A stretch of DNA of 64,000 bases from Patescibacteria group bacterium. Its GTDB lineage: Bacteria; Patescibacteriota; Patescibacteriia; UBA2591; JAQUPP01. Below are positions 9,587 through 64,000 of this stretch, one piece after another. How positions within the stretch are numbered: position 1 is the stretch's first letter; every line of letters starts with the position of its first letter. A program made the position numbers and the translations under genes. The DNA is taken from the NCBI GenBank assembly GCA_028716665.1, contig JAQUPP010000002.1, positions 139,717-203,716 of the forward strand. The letters run 5' to 3'. The notes beneath the pieces were generated by a model that saw only the letters and a program-made list of their open reading frames with translations, ran no database searches and was not told the DNA's origin.

Positions 9587-9946
9587 ATGTTTTTCAATCG
9601 TTTAATTAAAAGTTTCATCAATGCTTTTCGGGGGATAGGGTATACCTTTCGCCACGAAGTCAGCTTCAGAATTCAGATTATTTTTGCAATTGTTGTTTTA
9701 ATCGGCGCTTTTTATTTGCCTTTGAGAACTCTGGAAAGAGTGGTGATTATCTTATTAGTGGCGATGGTTTTAATTTTGGAACTGGCCAATTCGGTATTGG
9801 AAAGAGTGGTTGATTTATTTCAACCGAAAATAGATTATATCGCCAAAGCGGTTAAAGATATTATGGCCGCCGCGGTTTTTGTGGCCGCCTTGGCTTCGGT
9901 CGTGGTGGGACTAATTATCTTCGTACCATATCTTCTTAAAATTTAA
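9587..9946 (+). CDS. dgkA: Diacylglycerol/undecaprenol kinase (DgkA family)
   Basis: Three TM helices, conserved EL.NS.LE region (LILELANSVLERVVD). Confidence 0.75.
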   Translation: MFFNRLIKSFINAFRGIGYTFRHEVSFRIQIIFAIVVLIGAFYLPLRTLERVVIILLVAMVLILELANSVLERVVDLFQPKIDYIAKAVKDIMAAAVFVAALASVVVGLIIFVPYLLKI

Positions 9947-53532: not shown

Positions 53533-54549
53533 ATGAAGTTTTATCAAGAAATAATAAAAAAATCCAAATCTGTTGATGGTAAATTCAAGAAAATCAATGA
53601 ATCTCAACTAAACAGGATAAAGATAATTTTTCATATTCCTAAATTTCATCCTAGGGCAAAAGCAATTTCAGGCTATACTTTTAGTCCATTGGCTTTGGAA
53701 AATCTTACAAAAAATAAAACTTACAATTTAACGAAAAATCATATCTTTATTATAGATGAATCAGTCAGCAAGCAATCATTTGTCAGAGAGTTTATTAAAA
53801 AACAAAATATCAGTCCAATCATTCTTAAATCAATTGAGGGTAAAGTTAAGACCAAGCCTTTTCTTGATGAATTGATAAAAAACCATGATTTGAATAAAAA
53901 ACAAAATTTAACATTAGTCATTATTGGAGGGGGTTTGCTTCTTAATGTCGGCGCTTATCTTGCGGAAAAATTGTCAGCAAATCTTATTCTTTTCCCGACT
54001 ACTGTTATAGCAATGGCTGATGGCGCAGGAGGAAAAGTTAGAATAAATTTTATTTCCGATAATCGCGCCTACAAACATTTTTATAAGTCGTTTTACGAAC
54101 CAAACGCGATTTTTCTTGATAAGAGATTTCTTGAGTCGCTTCCCAAAAAACAAATCAGTATTGGTTTTGTTGAGATTATAAAACATGGTTTGTTTCAGAG
54201 TCCTAAACTTTATGATTATATTCTTCGTTCAGGAAAAGATTTTTTTGTCGACATAAAAAAACTAAAAAAAGCCATTTTTTGGGCAGCAGCCTTGAAGAAT
54301 GTATGTATTGATGTTGACGTAGAAGAAAATGAGAATGGTTCTAGAAAAATTCTAAGGGGAGGACATGATTTTTCTGATAGAATCGAGGAAGATTTAAAAC
54401 TTGAAATTCCTCACGGAATTGCTGTTGCAATTGGAATCATAAAGCAGCTAGAAATGGAGCGCGAAAATGAGCTTCTTGATAAAGCAAAAAAGTTATTTAA
54501 TATCTTAAATATTCCTTATACTATTGAAGATTTTAATAAATGGAATTAA
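53533..54549 (+). CDS. Dehydroquinate-synthase-like / iron-ADH superfamily enzyme (sugar-phosphate cyclase or glycerol-phosphate dehydrogenase-like)
   Basis: LVIIGGGLLLNVGAYLAEKL nucleotide-binding motif; size ~340 aa. Confidence 0.5.
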   Translation: MKFYQEIIKKSKSVDGKFKKINESQLNRIKIIFHIPKFHPRAKAISGYTFSPLALENLTKNKTYNLTKNHIFIIDESVSKQSFVREFIKKQNISPIILKSIEGKVKTKPFLDELIKNHDLNKKQNLTLVIIGGGLLLNVGAYLAEKLSANLILFPTTVIAMADGAGGKVRINFISDNRAYKHFYKSFYEPNAIFLDKRFLESLPKKQISIGFVEIIKHGLFQSPKLYDYILRSGKDFFVDIKKLKKAIFWAAALKNVCIDVDVEENENGSRKILRGGHDFSDRIEEDLKLEIPHGIAVAIGIIKQLEMERENELLDKAKKLFNILNIPYTIEDFNKWN

Positions 54550-55775
54550 CGCGTCTCTATTTATCTTTAATTTTTATTTCCAAAATTATGCAAGTAAAAG
54601 AAATGGATAAAAAATTTTTATCACGAGATTTGCCGCCCGACGATATTGAAATAGTAAAGTCAGATGGGAATTTTTTATTTGATTCCAAAGGGAAAAAATA
54701 CATAGATTTTTTAATGGGTTGGTGCGTTGGAAATGTCGGTTGGGGGAACGAAGAAATAAAAAAGAAAATAAAAAAATATAATGGGCCGGACTATGTTAAT
54801 CCGAATTATTTGTATAAATCATGGGCTGAATTGGCAGAATTGTTGGCAAAAATAACACCGGGTAAATTGAAAAAGAGTTTTCGCGCGACTGGCGGAACGG
54901 AAGCGGTGGAAATCGCGCTTCAAGCGGCTATGTCGCACACCAAACGGCATAAATTTATTTCCATTGAAGGCAGCTATCACGGCCATTCAATCGGAGCGAT
55001 GAGCGTCGGGTCTTCTGATTTTCGTAATTGGTATAAAAATCTCCTGCCGGATTGTTATAAAATAAAACCGCCCTTGGACGATAAAGCGGCTGATGAAGTT
55101 GAAAAATTATTAAAACAAAAAGACATTGCTGCTCTGATTATGGAACCGATTATTTGTAATCTCGGCGTAATAATTCCGGAAAAAGAATTTATGACCCGAG
55201 CGCAATCGTCTTGTAAAAAATACGGTACCTTACTGATTATGGACGAAGTGGCGACCGGTTTTGAGAGAACCGGAAAATTATTTGCTTCAGAATATTTTGA
55301 CCTAGAACCGGACATTATGTGTTTGGCAAAGGGGATTACCGGCGGTTATGGCGGTTTGGGCGCGACAATCACAACCGAAGAAATTGCAAAATCAATGGAA
55401 TACGAATTCAGTTTTTATTCAACCTATGGTTGGCATCCGTTAAGCGCAGAAATTGCCATTGCTAATATCAAATATATCTTGAAACATAAAAAACAATTGG
55501 AGAAAAATATAAATGAAATGAGCAAATATTTTACAGAACGGCTTTCAAAAATGAAATTTAAATATCCGGCCAATGTTCATGTCAAAGGATTGGCAATAGG
55601 AGTTGAATTTAAAAAACCAAATTACGCTAATCAAATAGTTGCTCAATCGCAAAAAAACGGTGTTTTATTTTCATCACTTGGTAATACGATATTCACTTTA
55701 TTTCCGGCTTTAAATATTGATAGAAAAACAGCCGAAAAAGGATTGAATATTTTAGAAAAATCTTTAATGTTATAA
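54540..55775 (+). CDS. Class III PLP-dependent aminotransferase
   Basis: GGTEAVEIALQAA, LIMDEVATGF, CLAKGITGG (PLP-Lys region). Confidence 0.75.
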   Translation: MELTRLYLSLIFISKIMQVKEMDKKFLSRDLPPDDIEIVKSDGNFLFDSKGKKYIDFLMGWCVGNVGWGNEEIKKKIKKYNGPDYVNPNYLYKSWAELAELLAKITPGKLKKSFRATGGTEAVEIALQAAMSHTKRHKFISIEGSYHGHSIGAMSVGSSDFRNWYKNLLPDCYKIKPPLDDKAADEVEKLLKQKDIAALIMEPIICNLGVIIPEKEFMTRAQSSCKKYGTLLIMDEVATGFERTGKLFASEYFDLEPDIMCLAKGITGGYGGLGATITTEEIAKSMEYEFSFYSTYGWHPLSAEIAIANIKYILKHKKQLEKNINEMSKYFTERLSKMKFKYPANVHVKGLAIGVEFKKPNYANQIVAQSQKNGVLFSSLGNTIFTLFPALNIDRKTAEKGLNILEKSLML

Positions 55776-55806
55776 TTTAAATAATTAATTAATTTAAATA
55801 AAATTT

Positions 55807-56001
55807 ATGGTACAATTTTTAACGCAGAATCCATGGGCAATGTATTTAATAATTATCTGGTGTTTGCCGTGGAAGGGAATAGCGCTTTGGATGGCGGCCA
55901 GACGAAATGATATTTGGTGGTTTGTGGCACTCTTAGTGATTAATACCTTGGGAATACTTGAAATTCTTTATATTTTTGTATTCAGCAAAAGGAAGGTTTA
56001 A
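55807..56001 (+). CDS. Small membrane protein, unknown
   Basis: Two TM helices. Confidence 0.3.
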   Translation: MVQFLTQNPWAMYLIIIWCLPWKGIALWMAARRNDIWWFVALLVINTLGILEILYIFVFSKRKV

Positions 56002-56033
56002 TTTTTTCAATTGGCTGATTAAACCTTAAAATT

Positions 56034-56573
56034 ATGCCGCTTTATTTTATTACCGGAAATAAAAATAAATTCGCTGAAGTAAAATCAATATTGAATGATG
56101 TTGAACAATTGGATATTAATTTGACGGAAATTCAGGATATTGACGCAAAAAATATTGTTAAAGAAAAATTATTGGAAGCGTTAAAACATCAAAAAGGCGA
56201 ATTTATTATTGAAGACACATCGCTTTATTTGGATTGTCTTAATGGTTTGCCCGGTCCGTTGATAAAATGGTTTTTACAGACGATCGGGAATGAAGGCATA
56301 TTTAAAATCGCGGAAAAGTGGGGTAATTTTAAAGCAGAGGCCAAAACTATTGTCGGTTACGCCAAAAGTCCGGAAGAAATATATTTTTTTGAGGGCTCGG
56401 TAAAAGGAGAAATTGTCGTTCCAAGAGGGGAAACTAATTTTGGCTGGGATCCGATTTTTCAGGCGGAAGGCATGGATAAAAGTTTTGCCGAAATCAGCCG
56501 AGAAGAAAAAAATTCCATCAGTATGAGACGAAAGGCATTGAATAAATTTAAAGAATTTATTGAGAAAAAATAA
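56034..56573 (+). CDS. Non-canonical purine NTP pyrophosphatase (Ham1/RdgB ITPase)
   Basis: FITGNKNKFAEV, EDTSL, GFGWDPIF motifs. Confidence 0.8.
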   Translation: MPLYFITGNKNKFAEVKSILNDVEQLDINLTEIQDIDAKNIVKEKLLEALKHQKGEFIIEDTSLYLDCLNGLPGPLIKWFLQTIGNEGIFKIAEKWGNFKAEAKTIVGYAKSPEEIYFFEGSVKGEIVVPRGETNFGWDPIFQAEGMDKSFAEISREEKNSISMRRKALNKFKEFIEKK

Positions 56574-56624
56574 TTATAATTTATAAAATAGCTCCATCTT
56601 CGGATTAGAGGGGCTATTTTTTAA

Positions 56625-56655
56625 AATTTGACCTTTTTTTAATTTGTGATATAAT
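56625..56655 (+). promoter_or_regulatory. Promoter TTGACC-16-TATAAT with extended -10 TTTGTGATATAAT (same extended -10 as gyrB promoter)
   Basis: Read directly. Confidence 0.45.
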
Positions 56656-56711
56656 TAGAAAAAGCAGGCTGATTAGCATTATTACTTTATTAGTGTTAAA
56701 ATAATATTAAT

Positions 56712-57374
56712 ATGAAAATTACGCGATTTGCGCAATCTTGTGTTCTAATTGAAACAAAAAATAAAAGGATTTTAATTGATCCCGGAAATATTCAATACCA
56801 GGAATCATTTTTAAATAATGAATGGAAAGACGTTGATGTTTTATTGATTACACATAAACACGCGGATCATTGCCATATTGATGCTATTAAAGAAATTATA
56901 AAAAATAAAAAAACAAAGTTTTATACCACCCAAGAAGTTGCCGCCGCTTATCCGGAAATTCAATCAGAAATTATAAAGGAAGGTGATATTTTAAACTGCG
57001 ATGATATTAAAATTGAGGCAGTAAAGGCGATTCACGGTTATGTCCCTTTTCTTAAGGGCGATAAAGAAATAAAAGAAAATGTCGGATATATAATTGATGA
57101 TGGTGCTTGCAGAGTTTATCAAACCAGCGACACCATTTGTTTTAATAATAATTATAAGTGTGATGTTCTATTCGTGCCGGTTTGCGATCACGGTTTAGTG
57201 ATGGGTCCTTATGAGGCAGCATTGTTCACCAAAGAAACGGGTGCCAAATTAGTTGTGCCGATCCATTATGACAATCCGAAATATCCCGCTGATTTTGAGC
57301 GCGTGAAAAAAGAATTTGAAGCACAAGATTTGAATTTTAAATTTTTAACGATAGGAGAGAGTTTTATAAAATAA
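56712..57374 (+). CDS. MBL-fold metallo-hydrolase
   Basis: LITHKHADHC motif. Confidence 0.65.
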   Translation: MKITRFAQSCVLIETKNKRILIDPGNIQYQESFLNNEWKDVDVLLITHKHADHCHIDAIKEIIKNKKTKFYTTQEVAAAYPEIQSEIIKEGDILNCDDIKIEAVKAIHGYVPFLKGDKEIKENVGYIIDDGACRVYQTSDTICFNNNYKCDVLFVPVCDHGLVMGPYEAALFTKETGAKLVVPIHYDNPKYPADFERVKKEFEAQDLNFKFLTIGESFIK

Positions 57375-57381
57375 TATTAAT

Positions 57382-58146
57382 ATGAAACTAAACAATAAAA
57401 CAATCTTAATTTTTTTGATTGTAATAATGGTAATCGCAGTTTGTATTGTGCTATTTTCTTTTAATAAAATACAAAAAATATCAGATCAATATCGACAACC
57501 GAATTTACCGAAAACACAGCCGCAAACCGGATTGGCAAATCCCGCTTCGGTTAATTGCGTTAATAAAGGCGGAAATTTAGAAATAAAAACTGATTTAACC
57601 GGCGGCCAATACGGTCTTTGTGTTTTTTCAAGCGGCGCAAAATGCGAGGAATGGGCGTTATTTAGAGGGGAGTGCGGCGCGGAAAATCCGAATTATTGCG
57701 AGCAAGATTTAGACTGCGCTTGCGGGAAAAATAAAACAACCGATAACTGTTTTTATGGACAAAAAGAATTTGTAAACACAAATCAACAGTGTCCGGATTT
57801 TTGCAACGGAATTGCAGCCAATTTGGAAATAAAATGTGAAAATTATAAATGTACGCAGATTAATAAACTAAACCAAAAATGCACTGATTACAGCGTGGAA
57901 AATTGTCCAACTGATTGCGTAGTTTGTCCGCCTTGCGCCGAATGCAGTTCCATAAGCTGCCAATCAAAAGAATTTTGTAAAAATATCGGATTTGACAGCA
58001 GTTGGTATGAAAGCATTAAACATCAAAGCTCTGCAAAAAATTGCGAAGACCAGTGCGGGAACGGCATTTGTGAAGAAGTAGTTTGTTTGACTGTCGGTTG
58101 CCCGTGCGCGGAAACAAAAGAAACTTGTCCAAAAGATTGTAAATAA
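57382..58146 (+). CDS. Secreted DUF333-domain Cys-rich protein (paralog 1)
   Basis: NPASVNCVNKGGNLEI...GQYGLCVF..GAKCEEWALFRGECG matches DUF333; C-terminal CGNGICEEVVC...PCAETKETCPKDCK module. Confidence 0.6.
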   Translation: MKLNNKTILIFLIVIMVIAVCIVLFSFNKIQKISDQYRQPNLPKTQPQTGLANPASVNCVNKGGNLEIKTDLTGGQYGLCVFSSGAKCEEWALFRGECGAENPNYCEQDLDCACGKNKTTDNCFYGQKEFVNTNQQCPDFCNGIAANLEIKCENYKCTQINKLNQKCTDYSVENCPTDCVVCPPCAECSSISCQSKEFCKNIGFDSSWYESIKHQSSAKNCEDQCGNGICEEVVCLTVGCPCAETKETCPKDCK

Positions 58147-58154
58147 TTTAGATT

Positions 58155-58580
58155 ATGAAAGTAAATAAAAAATTAATTTTTAGCATTATAATTATTGCGG
58201 TTATTGCCGGAATAATTTTGTTATGTTGTTTATGGAAAAGTGGTTATTGGCAAAAGAAAAAAATAAATCAAATTCAAGAGCAATTTAAAAATCAGTCCCA
58301 ATCGCAAACCGGAATGGTCAATCCAGCTTCAAAATATTGCGTTGAACAAAACGGAACATTGGAAATAAGAAAAAATGAAGCAGGCGAGTATGGAGTTTGT
58401 GTTTTCGCGAATGGCACCGAGTGCGATGAATGGGAATTTTTTCGCGGAGAATGCAAGGTAGAAAGAGATAAATGTGTTGATTTATGCGGAGATCAAATAT
58501 GTCAAGAAGTTGTTTGCAAGGAAATAGGGAGTCCTTGCGCGGAAACAAAAGAAACTTGTCCGGCAGATTGTAAAAAATAA
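58155..58580 (+). CDS. Secreted DUF333-domain Cys-rich protein (paralog 2)
   Basis: NPASKYCVEQNGTLEI...GEYGVCVF..GTECDEWEFFRGEC; same C-terminal Cys module. Confidence 0.6.
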   Translation: MKVNKKLIFSIIIIAVIAGIILLCCLWKSGYWQKKKINQIQEQFKNQSQSQTGMVNPASKYCVEQNGTLEIRKNEAGEYGVCVFANGTECDEWEFFRGECKVERDKCVDLCGDQICQEVVCKEIGSPCAETKETCPADCKK

Positions 58581-58611
58581 CTTTAAAAAATTAAAATAAA
58601 AAATATTATTT

Positions 58612-59061
58612 ATGATTTATTTAGGGGCGGATCACGCCGGATTCAAATTAAAAGAAGAAATAAAAAAATATTTAAAAAATTCAGGTTTTAAATATCAAGA
58701 TTTAGGTAATCAAATTTTTGATTCAGAGGATGATTATCCGGACTTTGCTTATCAAGTGGCGAAGAAAGTGGCTCAAGAAAAAAATTCCAAAGGAATTTTA
58801 TTTTGCGGCACCGGTCAAGGAATGGCCTTGGCGGCCAATAAAGTAAAAGGAATCTATGCCATGCCGGCCTGGAATAAATTAACCGCCAAGCACGCGGCAG
58901 ATCATAATCAAGCCAATATTTTAACTTTGGGCGGACACATTACTTCAACTAAATCGGCCAAAGAAATAATTAAAATTTGGTTAAAAACCAAACCGTTGAA
59001 AAATATAAAATATTCAAGAAGAATTAATAAAATAAAGAGTTTTGAAAATGAATTAAAATAA
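58612..59061 (+). CDS. rpiB: Ribose-5-phosphate isomerase B
   Basis: IYLGADHAGF...ILFCGTGQGMALAANKVKGI. Confidence 0.85.
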   Translation: MIYLGADHAGFKLKEEIKKYLKNSGFKYQDLGNQIFDSEDDYPDFAYQVAKKVAQEKNSKGILFCGTGQGMALAANKVKGIYAMPAWNKLTAKHAADHNQANILTLGGHITSTKSAKEIIKIWLKTKPLKNIKYSRRINKIKSFENELK

Positions 59062-59106
59062 TCCGAATCTGCGAATGTATCCGAATGCTACAAATAAATA
59101 AAAATT

Positions 59107-60936
59107 ATGAGCAGCGTCATTGACGAGATAAAATCTAAATTGGATATTGTTGATGTTCTGTCCGAATATATCCAACTCAAACAGGCGGGCGCCAATTTCA
59201 GAGCGGTTTGTCCATTTCATCGCGAGAAGACGCCGTCATTTTTTATTTCTCCGGAAAGGCAAATTTGGCATTGCTTCGGGTGCGGCAAGGGAGGAGATAT
59301 TTTTGGTTTTATCAGAGAAATAGAAGGGGTGGAATTTCCGGAAGCTTTGAGAATTTTGGCTCAGCGCGCCGGAGTTAAAATTGAAAAATATAATCAGGCC
59401 GAAGTCAGCCAAAAAACAAAATTACAGGATATTTGTTCCATTTCGGCAAAATTTTATCATAAAATTCTTTTGGAATCTTCCTCCGCGGAAAAAGCCCGTC
59501 AATATCTTAAAGAAAGGGAATTGGATCAAAAAACCATTGCCGAATTTCAATTGGGTTTTGCGCCGGAAAAAGGAAATTTGCTTTTGGAGTTTCTTTCAAA
59601 AAGAGGTTATAAGCCGGCCGAGATTGAAGCGTCAGGCATGATTATCAAGTCAACTCATCAATCTTCATATTATGATCGTTTTCGCAGTCGGATAATGTTT
59701 CCGATTTTTAATCTTTTCGGCCAAGTGGTCGGTTTCACGGGAAGAGTTATGCCCGCCTTCTCCGACCAGCTGGCGGATACGGCGGGCAGGCCCGTCGATG
59801 AACAAAAAGAAGTGGCAAAATATATCAATACGCCGGAAACTCAAATTTACAGCAAGAGCCGCGTTTTATACGGTTTGGATAAGGCCAAATTAGAAATTAA
59901 ACTCCAAGATTTTGTTATTTTAGTTGAAGGGAATATGGACGTGATCGCTTGCCATCAATTCGGCACCAAAAATGTGGTTTGCACTTCGGGCACGGCTTTA
60001 ACCTCGGAACAGATCAAGCTTTTAAAACGTTACACGCCAAATATAATTTTAGCTTTTGATGTTGATTTGGCCGGTCAAAATGCCACTCAAAGAGGCATAG
60101 ATTTATTGCTTCAAGAAGATTTGAATGTTAAAATTCTTCATTTGTTATCCGGAAAAGATCCTGACGAATGTATCAGGAAAACACCGGAGATTTGGCAAAA
60201 AGCCATTAAAGAACCATTGCCGATTATGGAATATTATTTTTCTTCGGCCATTGCTCGCGTTAATCCGGATTCAAAAATTTTAAGTATTGAAAATAAAAAG
60301 CAAGTTTCACAAATTTTATTGCCTTTTATCGCCAAATTGGGCAGTCCGGTTGAACAAGGCCTCTGGGTAAAAAAACTCAGCAATGATTTGGATATTTCCG
60401 AAATTTCTTTACACGATGCTTTGAAAAAAATTAAATTGCCACAAAAAAATAAAGAAAAAGATAATTCGGAAGCCAATGAAAAACCATCAAGCGAAGAACA
60501 AGTAGGCGATATGCTGCTCGGCTTGATTTTAAAATATCCGGAAAAAGGAGAAATAGCGAGCAAATTGATTTTTGATATGTTCATTAGGCCCAGGGCTCAA
60601 ACCCTTGCCAAAATCATAAAAGAATGTTATATTAAGAATAATAAAATTGAAGTTGATCAAATTAAGGAAGAATTCAAAGACAAAGATTCGGAATATATTG
60701 ATTTTTTGTTTTTTTTGATTGAAAAGGAATTTGCCGGCCAAAAAGACAAAGAAATAGAAAAAGAATTCAATAATTTATTCCGCATTTTAAAAAAACGGCA
60801 TTTGGAAAAAAGAAGAGAAAAAGTGATGCTGGAATTGAAAGAAGCGGAAAAAAATAAAGATAAAGAAATGGTTGAAAAAATTATCAGGGAAATTACGGAA
60901 TTATCGCATGAAATAAATGTTTGCGACCATTCTTAA
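59107..60936 (+). CDS. dnaG: DNA primase
   Basis: Zinc finger CPFHREKTPSF...WHCFGCGKGGD, Toprim EGNMDV...DVDLAG. Confidence 0.92.
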   Translation: MSSVIDEIKSKLDIVDVLSEYIQLKQAGANFRAVCPFHREKTPSFFISPERQIWHCFGCGKGGDIFGFIREIEGVEFPEALRILAQRAGVKIEKYNQAEVSQKTKLQDICSISAKFYHKILLESSSAEKARQYLKERELDQKTIAEFQLGFAPEKGNLLLEFLSKRGYKPAEIEASGMIIKSTHQSSYYDRFRSRIMFPIFNLFGQVVGFTGRVMPAFSDQLADTAGRPVDEQKEVAKYINTPETQIYSKSRVLYGLDKAKLEIKLQDFVILVEGNMDVIACHQFGTKNVVCTSGTALTSEQIKLLKRYTPNIILAFDVDLAGQNATQRGIDLLLQEDLNVKILHLLSGKDPDECIRKTPEIWQKAIKEPLPIMEYYFSSAIARVNPDSKILSIENKKQVSQILLPFIAKLGSPVEQGLWVKKLSNDLDISEISLHDALKKIKLPQKNKEKDNSEANEKPSSEEQVGDMLLGLILKYPEKGEIASKLIFDMFIRPRAQTLAKIIKECYIKNNKIEVDQIKEEFKDKDSEYIDFLFFLIEKEFAGQKDKEIEKEFNNLFRILKKRHLEKRREKVMLELKEAEKNKDKEMVEKIIREITELSHEINVCDHS

Positions 60937-60976
60937 AGTTTAATTTTGATAAGACGAATAAAATTTAATAAAGTTC

Positions 60977-61888
60977 ATGAAATTTAAAATAGTCAGTGAT
61001 TATAAAGAAGCCAAAGAATTATGGCAGATGTTCAGTCCTAATCAATGCCTGTGGGATCTATGGGAAGTCAGGGATTGTTTTATCAGGGGTACGAATTATC
61101 CGTTATATTTTATCGTTGGTTACGAAGGAGATGAAATCTTGGGCATTTTGCCGTTATGGTATAATCCGGATCAAAAATATTATTCTTTCATCGGCGATGA
61201 TTTGCCGGAAGAAAATAAATTATTTTTAAAAGATAAAAAGCTTTTGCCTGAATTTTTGAAACAATGTCCAGACAGGACTTATCTGGAATATCTTAATCAA
61301 GATGATAAGAATTTTTTCCCTTCTTTCAAAATTGTAGTTCATCCGGATGATTGTTATTATCACTTGAATTTGACAGGCTTTAATTCTTTTGAAGATTATT
61401 TGCAAAGCTTTGGTAAAAAACATCGCAAAAATCTTAAATACGATCTTAACGGTTTGTCGGTTCAAGGTTTTACCGCTGACTTGGAAAATAATTTTGAAGA
61501 AAATATTATTGATATTATTTCTCGTTATAATTTAGGGCGATTTAAAGATGATTCTTTTTTTGCCACTCCCAGTTTTAGCAAGAGTTTATTAAATTTAATT
61601 CTTTTGACTAAGGAAAAAGGGGAGCTGCACATGGTTGTTATTAAAAAATTAAATCAGATATACGGCGCGCAATTTGCCATTCTCCATAAGGGTGTTTATA
61701 CTGTTATTATGGGCGGACATGATTCAAGTATAAAAAATTTAGGCAAATTATTGACAGTCGGTCATATCAAAAATGCCGTCAATTTGGGCATTCAAGAAAT
61801 AGATTTTATGGCTGGCGGAGAGTGGAAACAATTATGGCAGATGTTCGGAAGCGACGTTTACGAATGGGATAATTCGACCGGCAATTAA
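60977..61888 (+). CDS. Hypothetical protein, possibly FemAB/CelD-like (Acetyltransf_6) GNAT-fold
   Basis: Weak pattern similarity only; located between dnaG and rpoD. Confidence 0.3.
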
Positions 61889-61901
61889 GAAAAATAATAT
61901 T

Positions 61902-63137
61902 TTGTTTTTTATTTTTAATTCCGTTAAGGCGGAAAAAAAATCAATGAAATCAAATCATAAACAAAAAATCAACAAGAAAAAATCAGTTAAAATAGTGAAG
62001 AAGGCTTCCAAAAAAGTTTATAATTCTGATCATCAAGATAATGCTTCGCGAATAAAATGGCCGGAACAAGAAGCTCAGGCATTAATCAATAAGGGCAGAC
62101 AGAGAAGTTTTGTGACAGAAAAAGAACTTTTTTATACTTTTCCCCGCTGTGAGAAATATTTGAATGAATATGAAGACTTTTTGGATTATATGGAAAGAAT
62201 GGGAATCAAAATCATTGAATCTCCGGAAGGATTTTTGGAAAAACCTCATAAAAAAGAAGAAAAGAAATCAGGAAAGGATGGGGGATTAATGTTTGATTTA
62301 AGCCAGCTTTCATCCGATTCAATTCAAATGTATTTAAAAGAAATTGGACGCGTTCCATTATTAACCCCGGGCGAAGAAGTGGAATATGCGAAGGCTAAAG
62401 ATAAGGGGGATCATAAATCATCTCAAAAATTAATAGAAGCGAACTTGCGTTTGGTTGTCAGTATTGCCAAGAAATTTACCGGTTATGGACTAAGTTTTTT
62501 AGATTTGATTCAAGAAGGCAATATCGGTTTGTTCAAAGCCGTGGAGAAATATGATTGGAAAAGGGGTTATAAATTTTCCACTTATGCCACTTGGTGGATT
62601 AAACAAGCGGTCACTAGAGCTCTGGCGGATCAATCAAGAACAATCAGAATTCCAGTTCACGTGGTGGAAACTTTAAGCAAATTCCAACAAGCCACTCGCT
62701 GGTTGGCTCAGCAACTTGGACGTCAGCCGACTCCGGAAGAAGTGGCAAGCGAATTAAGCATTCCGATTGATGAGTCAAGATATTTAATGAAAATTTCTCA
62801 AGAAACGGTTTCGCTTGAAACCACAGTTGGCGACGACGAAGACAGCGACACGGAATTGGGAGATTTTATTGAAGATGTCAAAACTTTAACTCCGGATCGT
62901 TCCGCCGCCTTGAAATTATTAAGAGATTATATTAAAGAAATTGTCGTTGACTTGCCTCAGCGCGAAAGAAAAATTTTGGATATGCGTTTCGGTTTAACCG
63001 ATGGCGCCGCCCATACCTTGGAAGAGGTGGGGCAAGTTTTCTGTGTTACTCGTGAAAGAATTCGTCAAATTGAATCTAAAGCATTGGAGCGAATGAGAGA
63101 ATTCAAGGGTATTGAAAAAATTAAAGACTATTACTAA
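61902..63137 (+). CDS. rpoD: RNA polymerase sigma-70 (primary sigma factor)
   Basis: Regions 1.2 ([12 protein letters not shown]), 2.x ([16 protein letters not shown]...[13 protein letters not shown]), 3, 4 ([23 protein letters not shown]). Confidence 0.93.
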
Positions 63138-63197
63138 TTTGCAGAGCAAATTAGTAACCAATAACAAAAGACGAATAACTAATAACCACCAATAACT

Positions 63198-63554
63198 ATG
63201 TTTCGCTTTCAGAAATGGAATATTTATAATGAAACGAGAAAGTTAAGATTGGATATTAAAAGAAATTTATTACCAAAAATTTCATCTGCAGAAAAATATA
63301 TTTTAATACCTCAAATTGAGAGAGCAATTAATTCAATTATTTTAAATATTGCCGAGGGTTCATATAGAAAGTCTGATAAAGATTTTGCTCATTTTCTTAA
63401 TCAAGCGATAGCATCTCTTTATGAGGTTGTAGCCTGCCTTGATCTTATGTTGGATAGTTGTTATATTAATGAGGAAGATCATAGTAAATATTTGTTTCAA
63501 TTAGAGAATATCGCTAGACAAATTAGCGCTTTTACTCGATCATTAAAGAAATAA
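63198..63554 (+). CDS. Four-helix-bundle protein (TIGR02436 family, 23S-rRNA-IVS-type protein), stand-alone and flanked by short inverted repeats
   Basis: LNIAEGSYRKSDKDFAHFLNQAIASLYEV matches family signature; IRs aataactaataac (63170) / gttattagttatt (63563). Confidence 0.75.
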   Translation: MFRFQKWNIYNETRKLRLDIKRNLLPKISSAEKYILIPQIERAINSIILNIAEGSYRKSDKDFAHFLNQAIASLYEVVACLDLMLDSCYINEEDHSKYLFQLENIARQISAFTRSLKK

Positions 63555-63613
63555 TATTTTGTTATTAGTTATTTGTTCTTTGTTATTTGTAAAATTGTTT
63601 TAGCAATTTTTAT

Positions 63614-63939
63614 TCCGGCGTAGCTCAATGGTAGAGCAGCTGGCTGTCAAAAAAAGGCAGCCCTCCGAAGTAATTCGGGGTAGAAAAATAGGGTGAAATC
63701 GGGGAAACCCCACTGGGGCAATCCCGAGCCAAGCCTTAACCTATAAAGTTAAGGAAGGTGTAGAGACTATCCATTTATGGAGTAGCCGATCAACTTGTTG
63801 ATGTAGGCGAAGCGCCCTATCCCGCACAGAATTTAATATTTTATTAAATTCTACGGGAATGATATAGTCCACGCTTAGAAGCAATTCTAGGATAAGTGTA
63901 ACCAGCTTGTTGTGGGTTCGATTCCCTCCGCCGGAGCCA
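63614..63939 (+). tRNA. tRNA-Asn (anticodon GUU) interrupted by group I intron; exon1 63614-63647, exon2 63899-63936 (+CCA to 63939)
   Basis: Exons fold as tRNA with U1-A72, G73, D-stem gctc/gagc, anticodon stem gctgg/ccagc, loop cuGU|Uaa, T-arm gtggg-ttcgatt-ccctc. Confidence 0.7.
63648..63898 (+). ncRNA. Group I self-splicing intron (IC3-like, tRNA-intron family), 251 nt
   Basis: Hallmark P3/P7 sequences GGCAATCCCGAGCCAAGCC and AAGGTGTAGAGACTATCCATTTATGG (cf. trnL intron GCAAUCCUGAGCCAA / AGGUGCAGAGACUCAAUGG); P1 exon ggcugU pairs with intron gcagcc (U.G at splice site); intron ends with G. Confidence 0.75.
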
Positions 63940-64000
63940 AATATTCTTGTGAAAGCGACCCGTCCCCGTCAGGGAATTGGTCAATAAAAATAAGGGTTTT

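Follow-up and report, generated by a model that had tools for sequence, protein, structure and literature searches.

What is encoded at positions 63614-63939 of the window, the 64,000-nt stretch of contig JAQUPP010000002.1 analysed here, where neither default ARAGORN nor the Rfam tRNA model detects the gene and the intron mode of ARAGORN calls a tRNA-Asp with a wrong boundary? We conclude with high confidence that a Patescibacteria (CPR) bacterium of low GC content has here a gene for tRNA-Asn(GUU), into which a 251-nt group I intron, lacking an endonuclease gene, is inserted between U35 and U36.

Several features of the locus bear on its host. The window has a GC content of 34.9%, and an RpoD protein 98% identical to its own belongs to an entry named "Patescibacteria group bacterium" by NCBI, as do many homologues with 65-75% identity. 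The gene order dnaG-rpoD-tRNA-Asn is also found, with RpoD at 50-68% identity, in loci titled Paceibacterota, Parcubacteria, Buchananbacteria and others. Three assemblies (that of the window, GCA_028690995.1 and Logan SRR22315505) contain this same sequence, which is therefore not an assembly artefact.

The tRNA-Asn gene and its splice junction

The gene is composed of two exons and the intervening intron:

63614..63647, + strand: 5' exon of tRNA-Asn(GUU), comprising the acceptor 5' strand, the D arm, the anticodon stem 5' strand and C32, U33, G34 and U35
63648..63898, + strand: group I intron of 251 nt, ending in G, supported by RF00028, by a profile of Asn introns and by the indel relative to intron-less alleles
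63899..63939, + strand: 3' exon, comprising U36, A37 and A38, the anticodon stem 3' strand, the variable loop, the T arm, the acceptor 3' strand, G73 and CCA

Joined in silico, 63614-63647 and 63899-63939 form a canonical 75-nt tRNA that ARAGORN calls tRNA-Asn(gtt), in agreement with the preliminary description, which had assigned Asn identity from U1-A72, G73 and the anticodon GUU. Both U1-A72 and G73 are present in the tRNA body, and the CCA end is encoded in the gene at 63937-63939. The T stem carries a U50-U64 mismatch, which is also found in the intron-less sister alleles. An isotype check against the tRNAs of the collected homologous loci returned 26 tRNAs, none of them an intron-less tRNA-Asn, and was uninformative.

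Only two placements of the intron, 35/36 and 33/34, combine a U at position -1 with a terminal G, and only at 35/36 does that U take part in a U·G wobble. The junction is fixed by intron-less tRNA-Asn genes from three independent metagenome sources (L131/L164, L152 and L163), whose exons are 100% identical to those of the window and which align to it with a clean 251-nt gap at CTGT/TAACC. Because the 35/36 placement alone reproduces this junction, it is the correct one. The exact indel thus bears out the insertion site and the length proposed earlier, and it sets the intron boundary at G63898, the omega-G with which the intron had been expected to end.

Structure of the intron and its predicted splicing

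A search with Rfam RF00028 (Intron_gpI), which the preliminary description had put forward as a check, returned a significant full-length match on the + strand at 63638-63891 (model positions 1-253 of 253, 75.5 bits, E 2.3e-17), above the gathering score of 50. In this alignment, U63647 and G63657 take the positions of the conserved U and G that form the wobble pair at the 5' splice site. The P1 helix suggested earlier between ggcugU and gcagcc, with its U·G pair at the splice site, is found as such, and is extended by one further pair, C63648-G63656. The intron contains no endonuclease ORF, the longest overlapping reading frame being of 47 aa. Its parts are as follows:

63642..63662, + strand: P1, exon GGCUGU and intron C63648 paired with the internal guide G63656-C63662, 7 bp with an A7 loop
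63663..63680, + strand: P2 hairpin, 7 bp with a GUAA loop
63688..63695, + strand: P3 5' strand, pairing with 63813-63820
63699..63727, + strand: P4, J4/5 and P5, with P4 formed by 63699-63704 and 63722-63727, J4/5 AAA, and P5 formed by 63708-63711 and 63715-63718
63728..63759, + strand: P6 and P6a, with P6 formed by 63728-63730 and 63757-63759, and P6a by 63734-63740 and 63748-63754
63763..63769, + strand: P7 5' strand, with A63764 bulged, aligned to the Rfam consensus AGACUA / UAGUC
63770..63808, + strand: P7.1 and P7.2, with P7.1 formed by 63770-63773 and 63778-63781, and P7.2 by 63785-63787 with 63806-63808 and 63789-63793 with 63798-63802
63813..63820, + strand: P3 3' strand, from the Rfam alignment, folding and covariation
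63821..63857, + strand: P8, a long hairpin rich in A+U, with 63821-63824 paired to 63854-63857 and 63828-63837 to 63843-63852
63865..63870, + strand: P7 3' strand UAGUCC, directly preceded by J8/7 AAUGAUA (63858-63864)
63874..63891, + strand: P9 hairpin, 7 bp with a GCAA loop
63892..63898, + strand: 3' tail AUAAGUG with the omega-G (G63898), its boundary set by the intron-less alleles

The defining elements of a group I core, namely the P3-P8 and P4-P6 domains and a P7 pseudoknot with a bulged nucleotide, are all present. Between P7 and P3', P7.1 and P7.2 make up an additional domain, which folds as hairpins and shows as an insertion in the alignment to the Rfam model. Apart from the P7 pseudoknot, all group I helices (P1-P6a, P7.1, P7.2, P8 and P9) are recovered in the minimum-free-energy fold (z = -4.35).

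Covariation was assessed in a MAFFT alignment of 27 homologues scored against the explicit structure. Paired cells amount to 86.6%, compared with 35-46% when the 3' partners are slid, compensatory changes occur at 55 of 81 pairs, and none of 500 shuffles reaches the observed values. The group I structure is not due to chance. The U·G pair of P1 is kept in all 27 homologues, and the pair directly 3' of the splice site covaries (GC, AU, CG, GU). P2 shows compensatory changes at all seven of its pairs, with 96% of cells paired; three pairs covary in P3, five of six in P4, seven of seven in P6a and six of seven in P9, while P6 is 100% paired. The six pairs of P7 are invariant among the 27 sequences, as is the omega-G. 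In the variable domains, P7.1 is 84% paired with four covarying pairs and the basal 4 bp of P8 are 92% paired with three, whereas P7.2 is weaker (51-75% paired); the MAFFT alignment gives weak support for P7.2 and for distal P8 (51-63% paired).

G63765-C63869 in P7 is the probable guanosine-binding pair, an assignment modelled on the G264-C311 pair of Tetrahymena, which we take to be its counterpart. We infer that the intron would splice itself by standard group I chemistry, which has been shown experimentally for the 63%-identical homologue of GCA_016700035.1. The exon end GGCUGU would pair with the internal guide GGCAGCC to form P1 with U63647·G63657, and a free guanosine held at the G63765-C63869 site of P7 would attack the 5' splice site. 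The omega-G63898 would then take the same P7 site, and the freed 3'-OH of U35 would attack the 3' splice site, joining CUGU to UAA and restoring the anticodon loop CUGUUAA. We found no convincing P10, this pairing being essentially absent, and the exons would presumably be kept together by the anticodon stem of the tRNA. In all probability the genome has no tRNA-Asn gene other than this split one, and if so, translation depends on its splicing.

Kinship with known introns and alternative readings

The authors of the preliminary description were not aware of a group I intron described in tRNA-Asn, but such introns had already been reported by Williams 2020 and by Nakagawa et al. The former raised the number of interrupted-tRNA types from 4 to 21 (10.1101/2020.01.27.920355), and its Asn type is "Asn.4Ug" as relayed by Nakagawa et al. 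The latter counted 15 tRNA-Asn introns in 95 complete Patescibacteria genomes (10.1101/2025.07.03.662931; mSystems 2026, PMC13011429) and demonstrated precise in vitro self-splicing at 35/36 for the tRNA-Asn intron of GCA_016700035.1, sequencing the product and using a G-to-C change as control. The window intron is therefore a new example of a described and experimentally validated class, not a new discovery.

Judged by its sequence, the intron falls within the family of 35/36 tRNA-Asn/Asp introns described in Patescibacteria. An nhmmer profile built from 11 published endonuclease-less Asn introns matches 63652-63898 over profile positions 4-236 of 236 (E 1.3e-30, 101 bits). Host tRNA, insertion site, U(-1)·G wobble and omega-G are all alike, and the common blocks read ...GCAGCY..., AGGGUGAA, AGCCAAG, GGAAGGU.YAGAGACUA, GAUAUAGUCCAC and AUAAGUG/UAAC. 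The phylum is the same, an endonuclease gene is lacking as in most members, and standard tRNA finders miss or mis-call the gene, as they do for the published members (PMC13011429). A gene that is missed or mis-assigned makes a genome seem devoid of tRNA-Asn and lowers its completeness score, a point already published. The intron itself is absent from the published set: its best global identity is 0.68 (GCA_025999335.1), with 0.63 to the spliced GCA_016700035.1 intron, and among 71 reconstructed GTDB homologues the best identity is 0.73 (L028). Its source is a draft MAG, near-identical to GCA_028690995.1 and outside the complete genomes covered by Nakagawa et al., and it adds one diverged member to the described family.

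Could the intron instead derive from the cyanobacterial/plastid tRNA-Leu (IC3) lineage and have moved into tRNA-Asn? [quoted passage not shown] GGCAAUCCCGAGCCAAGCC and GGAAGGUGUAGAGACUA occur nearly verbatim in IC3 tRNA-Leu introns of Acidobacteriota, and a profile of five IC3 tRNA-Leu/Ile2 sequences matches 63694-63769 (E 8e-12). The likeness to cyanobacterial/plastid tRNA-Leu introns on which the preliminary description had drawn thus holds for the P3-P7 core motifs but does not extend to family membership, since the IC3 match is limited to that core at 39 bits, whereas the Asn-intron profile matches over its full length. The two P7 strands lie 95 nt apart in the window, compared with 26-45 nt in the five IC3 introns, and the IC3 insertion sites are 34/35, 33/34 or 36/37, not 35/36 of tRNA-Asn. 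The window intron has 43 nt of P7.1/P7.2 inserted between P7 and P3', a domain that the compact IC3 core lacks. Such an insert is a feature of subgroup IA. On the basis of the insert and of homology to the tRNA-Asn 35/36 introns labelled IA1/IA2 in Table S5 (PMC13011429), the architecture is IA-like and not of the IC3 tRNA-Leu type; the same work reports no IC introns in Patescibacteria tRNAs. We regard an IC3 origin as extremely unlikely.

Two other readings accept a group I intron but assign the gene differently. If the same 251 nt were shifted by two bases to 33/34, with the exon ending at U63645 and the intron at G63896, the product would be a tRNA-Thr(UGU); a U would still precede the 5' splice site and a G would still end the intron. 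ARAGORN calls this product tRNA-Thr(tgt), and ARAGORN/tFind give Thr-type 33/34 calls for most homologues (PMC13011429), as ARAGORN does for L174. The intron-less alleles, whose exon sequence is identical, refute this reading, since they have CTGTTAA where it would require CTTGTAA. Besides, U63645 has A63659 and not a G as its partner; the U·G of P1 involves U63647, both as aligned to Rfam and in all 27 homologues. In the homologue whose splice product was sequenced, the exons are joined at 35/36 (PMC13011429). U1-A72 and G73 occur in the window tRNA and in the 71 reconstructed homologues, while the tRNA-Thr(CGU) of the window itself has G1-C72 and U73. We give the Thr reading practically no credence. 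It is also quite improbable, if a little less so than either of these, that the insertion is decayed and non-splicing, leaving a pseudogene while another tRNA-Asn gene serves Asn decoding. The intron is indeed a lineage-specific insertion, absent from sister lineages, but every catalytic-core element is intact and in line with the covariation pattern of the family, and the exons show 100% identity with the alleles that lack the intron at the orthologous locus and are presumably functional. Among the rows considered from the table of 95 complete Patescibacteria genomes (PMC13011429), nearly all list a single tRNA-Asn gene, or no such gene where it is concealed by an intron.

Presence and absence of the intron among close relatives

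The element that is new here, and a modest one, is the presence or absence of the intron among close relatives with identical exons, a kind of polymorphism not reported by Nakagawa et al. (PMC13011429). The intron-less relatives share the dnaG-acetyltransferase-rpoD synteny with the window, with flanking genes at 88-90% nucleotide identity and RpoD at 98-99%. Of the seven rpoD-linked tRNA-Asn loci that are next closest, six likewise lack the intron. Because an intron without an endonuclease gene is present in the window and absent in its sister lineages, a fairly recent gain by the window lineage is suggested, although we propose it tentatively, rating it at somewhat less than an even chance. 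Published work has inferred that horizontal transfer is limited. Were the gain real, 35/36 tRNA introns would still be moving between Patescibacteria without a homing endonuclease of their own, by routes such as recombination after DNA uptake, reverse splicing, or an endonuclease acting in trans.

Variants that do encode an HNH endonuclease occur at the same insertion site, four of them in PMC13011429 together with L174 and L175, whose dnaG-rpoD-tRNA-Asn neighbourhood is as in the window and whose RpoD is 72% identical. These introns are 539-606 nt long with the ORF inside the P1 loop, whereas the P1 loop of the window intron is A7 and holds no ORF. The ribozyme of L174 represents a different sequence subtype (GGGAUAACGGUGAAG...) and is 0.62 identical to the window intron, and on these grounds the HNH-bearing intron of L174 was rejected as its parent. 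A close copy on a phage was not found in IMG/VR, where 11 of 18 matching contigs carry related introns, at best 0.64 identical. The polymorphism, together with the unrelated HNH-ORF intron that a relative of 72% RpoD identity has at this site, constitutes a natural system for the gain and loss of endonuclease-less introns.

A 23S_rRNA_IVP gene lies 60 nt upstream of the tRNA-Asn gene. A tblastn search (E 1e-3) found no homologue of it in the other collected tRNA-Asn loci, and this lineage-specific gene might have come in the same event as the intron.

A scan for consensus promoters showed promoter-like sites to be no commoner than in shuffled sequence. Past the 3' exon, one further feature was read by eye:

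63984..64000, + strand: 5' half of a hairpin resembling a terminator (AAAAAUAAGGGUUUU / AAAACCCUUAUUUUU with a U run), cut off by the end of the window

The consensus terminator scan did not list this hairpin at 63984..64000. It is complete in the near-identical contig L001, at 9624-9657, and is conserved in the intron-less relative L152.

Exon junction and tRNA identity

The interrupted gene occupies 63614-63939 of the window (+) and consists of the following parts:

63614-63647 (+), 5′ exon, TCCGGCGTAGCTCAATGGTAGAGCAGCTGGCTGT
63648-63898 (+), group I intron, 251 nt
63899-63939 (+), 3′ exon, TAACCAGCTTGTTGTGGGTTCGATTCCCTCCGCCGGAGCCA

Default ARAGORN, run on the whole window, does not call this gene and reports only a tRNA-Gly, a tRNA-Thr and a tRNA-Ser elsewhere, while its intron mode finds the split gene at 63614-63939 and names it tRNA-Asp(gtc) with a 236-nt intron. 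Searching the whole window with Rfam returned four matches above gathering scores, three tRNAs (Gly, Thr, Ser) and Intron_gpI. The preliminary description had proposed a group I intron that this model should recognize, and RF00028 indeed matches significantly over its full length at 63638-63891 (+; 75.5 bits, E 2.3e-17, gathering score 50 bits). In the Rfam alignment, the wobble U and G of the 5′ splice site fall on U63647 and G63657, and ~40 nt inserted relative to the model separate the P7 5′ strand from the P3 3′ strand. Together, these outcomes indicate that the intron-split gene is real and that standard tools overlook or misname it.

In-silico splicing at four placements, one base apart, yields a 75-nt cloverleaf each time, with the identity Thr(UGU) at 33/34, Thr(GGU) at 34/35, Asn(GUU) at 35/36 and Asp(GUC) at 36/37 (anticodon-loop positions). 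A U before the 5′ splice site and a G at the intron end are both present only for 35/36 and 33/34, which makes a tRNA-Thr(UGU) gene carrying the same 251-nt intron at 33/34 the rival reading. However, U63645, the splice-site U of that placement, faces A63659, so that only 35/36 provides the U·G pair, and taking out 251 nt at 33/34 leaves CTTGTAA, whereas naturally intron-less alleles read otherwise. These alleles came from a metagenome scan with the hypothetical spliced sequence GGTAGAGCAGCTGGCTGTTAACCAGCTTG as query, in which four of 40 loci (L131, L142, L144 and L152) carry tRNA-Asn exons 100% identical to those of the window, and from an RpoD look-up, which added a fifth intron-less locus (L163), identical over all 75 nt. 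L131, L152 and L163, from three different samples, share with the window the rpiB-dnaG-acetyltransferase-rpoD neighbourhood, 88-90% nucleotide identity over ~4 kb and 98-99% identity in RpoD. When the window is aligned with L152 and L131, the copies of the gene differ solely by a clean gap of 251 nt, located between CTGT and TAACC, reproducing the 35/36 junction that the preliminary description had placed by inference. The tRNA body points the same way, with U1-A72 and G73 in the window gene and in 71 of 71 reconstructed homologous split genes among the matches listed, whereas the window's own tRNA-Thr(CGU) has G1-C72 and U73. At the level of sequence, the intron-less alleles are decisive evidence on the exon junction and, with the U1-A72/G73 body, they identify the gene as tRNA-Asn(GUU) split at 35/36. 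The T stem contains a U-U mismatch at 50-64 (63913 and 63927), which is a lineage trait of this tRNA rather than decay, since the intron-less sister alleles are identical in sequence.

Ribozyme structure and family membership

Elements of the intron (window coordinates)
63642-63648 with 63656-63662 (+), P1, loop A7
63663-63680 (+), P2, GUAA loop
63688-63695 with 63813-63820 (+), P3
63699-63704 with 63722-63727 (+), P4
63708-63711 with 63715-63718 (+), P5
63728-63759 (+), P6/P6a
63763 and 63765-63769 with 63865-63870 (+), P7, A63764 bulged, G63765-C63869 the inferred G site
63770-63781 (+), P7.1
63785-63808 (+), P7.2
63821-63857 (+), P8
63874-63891 (+), P9, GCAA loop
AUAAGUG (+), tail, omega-G at 63898

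An unconstrained minimum-free-energy fold of 63638-63903 recovers every listed helix but the P7 pseudoknot, at -86.8 kcal/mol versus -65.3 ± 4.9 in shuffles (z = -4.35). In an alignment of 27 sequences (the window intron, 23 homologues from GTDB genomes and 3 published introns), standard pairs fill 86.6% of cells, versus 35-46% with the 3′ partners slid by 1-3 columns; compensatory changes occur at 55 of 81 pairs, and 0 of 500 shuffles reach the observed covariation values. Within these 27 sequences, P2, P4, P6a, P9 and the basal part of P8 show strong covariation, P7 and the splice-site U·G do not vary, and support is weak for P7.2 and distal P8. The structural reading in the preliminary description was right in every checkable detail. 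The longest ORF overlapping the intron is at most 47 aa, so it carries no homing endonuclease gene. No convincing P10 is seen in the window intron or in the experimentally spliced homologue, which has UAAAG as its P1 loop. This particular intron is predicted to self-splice.

The preliminary description knew of no such intron in tRNA-Asn; the class, however, had already been reported. Williams (bioRxiv 2020, 10.1101/2020.01.27.920355) used tFind to raise the interrupted bacterial tRNA types from 4 to 21, and Nakagawa et al. (PMC13011429; preprint July 2025, mSystems January 2026) cite the Asn type of that work as 'Asn.4Ug'. In 95 complete Patescibacteria genomes, Nakagawa et al. found 35/36 group I introns in 15 tRNA-Asn(GUU) and 3 tRNA-Asp(GUC) genes, noting that ARAGORN and tFind misname the Asn genes as Thr(UGU) through a two-base shift. 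One Asn and one Asp intron underwent precise GTP-dependent self-splicing at 35/36 in vitro, with the product sequenced and an omega-G-to-C control. Subgroup IA accounts for 25 of 28 introns at 35/36 and IC for none of the Patescibacteria tRNA introns, and two Asn introns of this kind are listed as IA1 and IA2 in Table S5 (PMC13011429).

[quoted passage not shown] An nhmmer profile of 11 published Asn introns that lack an endonuclease gene matches it end to end (63652-63898, E 1.3e-30, 101 bits), whereas one of five IC3 tRNA-Leu/Ile2 introns matches the P3-P7 core only (63694-63769, E 8e-12, 39 bits). The motifs that had suggested the cyanobacterial/plastid tRNA-Leu family are indeed common to IC3, recurring nearly verbatim in Acidobacteriota tRNA-Leu introns, but membership in that family does not hold: with its IA-like P7.1/P7.2 insert and its homology over the full length, the window intron belongs with the IA-type Asn/Asp introns. 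It adds a diverged new member to a family already published and experimentally validated.

Distribution and presence/absence among relatives

Scanning GTDB species representatives with a pattern across the exon end and intron start gave at least 120 loci. Among the matches listed, 107 of 120 match the Asn-intron profile significantly, the exon finder rebuilt a complete tRNA-Asn(GUU) with CUGU/UAA and omega-G in 71 of 120, and Patescibacteria MAGs form the majority; other locus titles name Nitrospirota, Acidobacteriota, Binatia, Deltaproteobacteria, Planctomycetes, Hormoscilla, Elusimicrobia and Margulisiibacteriota, in agreement with the rare cases outside Patescibacteria reported by Nakagawa et al. 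(PMC13011429). In IMG/VR, 18 viral-classed contigs (L179-L196) match the exon-plus-intron pattern (e.g. L195 1265-1489), 11 of 18 with a significant profile match; the closest of their introns is 0.64 identical to the window's, and none is near. They may represent phage-borne tRNAs or host tRNAs at prophage edges.

As the GTDB sample had been intron-selected, contigs of the nearest RpoD clusters were fetched irrespective of intron status.

tRNA-Asn after rpoD in the nearest RpoD clusters (RpoD identity to the window)
P0001, 98%, intron-less
P0003, 75%, intron-less
P0005, 75%, intron-less
P0002, 73%, intron-less
P0009, 73%, intron-less
P0015, 72%, 539-nt intron at 35/36 with a 123-aa HNH-like ORF
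P0054, 70%, intron-less
P0021, 67%, intron-less

The P0015 intron (contigs L174/L175; locus L174 3917-4531, likewise in L175) lies in the same dnaG-rpoD-tRNA-Asn context as the window intron and bears its ORF in the P1 loop, with the motif CxxC...HH...CANCH and a Pfam HNH match that, at E 0.002, falls short of the curated cut-off. Its ribozyme differs in sequence subtype from the window intron, to which it is 0.62 identical, and ARAGORN names the L174 gene tRNA-Thr(tgt) i(34,539). Under parsimony, the window lineage gained its intron once it had diverged from the 75% relatives, the simplest timing being later than its split from the sister group at 98-99%; alternatively, the intron may have been acquired earlier and then lost precisely by that sister group. 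No near-identical donor intron occurs among the at least 120 GTDB loci, and the metagenome scan targeted the intron-less allele. The one finding slightly beyond the literature is that close relatives differ in whether they carry this endonuclease-less intron.

Source organism and genomic neighbourhood

Window positions 54361-64000 are 99.99% identical to JAQVAD010000022.1 (GCA_028690995.1, L001), and the identical tRNA and intron occur on a Logan contig from SRR22315505. The window has a G+C content of 34.9%. The nearest RpoD cluster (98%), like many at 65-75% identity, carries the NCBI source name 'Patescibacteria group bacterium'. Loci with the gene order dnaG-rpoD-tRNA-Asn number more than 20, under titles such as Paceibacterota, Parcubacteria, Buchananbacteria and Wildermuthbacteria. 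A terminator-like hairpin follows the tRNA and extends beyond the window end (L001 9624-9657); it is conserved in L152 and absent from the consensus-scan listing.

Between rpoD and the tRNA lies a 23S_rRNA_IVP/four-helix-bundle gene (63198-63554, +, 118 aa, PF05635 E 6.6e-25). The three intron-less sister sources lack this gene, and only 85-94 nt separate their rpoD stop codon from the tRNA, compared with 476 nt in the window. Thus, the IVP gene and the intron are two lineage-specific insertions within ~700 bp. No IVP homologue lies near the other fetched tRNA-Asn loci.

In several relatives, large serine recombinase genes (Resolvase/Recombinase/Zn_ribbon_recom) stand directly 3′ of tRNA-Asn, on the minus strand in L163 (4322-5959), L174/L175 (4478-6013) and L166 (4400-5245), and just 3′ of the tRNA in L142 and L144; two contigs of sample Ga0265297 part ways right at the tRNA 3′ end. 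The downstream region of the window, seen in L001, contains no recombinase. In this clade, mobile elements seem to use the tRNA-Asn gene as an integration site.

Window DnaG (59107-60936) has 609 aa, whereas in L166 (1-2937) and L168 (66-2996), both with 75% RpoD identity, it reaches ~1000 aa, with a weak LAGLIDADG_3 match between the primase domains that suggests an intein, an insert absent from the window protein. Upstream of rpiB-dnaG, two adjacent cysteine-rich DUF333 (PF03891) genes (57382-58146 and 58155-58580, +), each with an N-terminal hydrophobic segment, look like tandem paralogues for secreted or membrane proteins.
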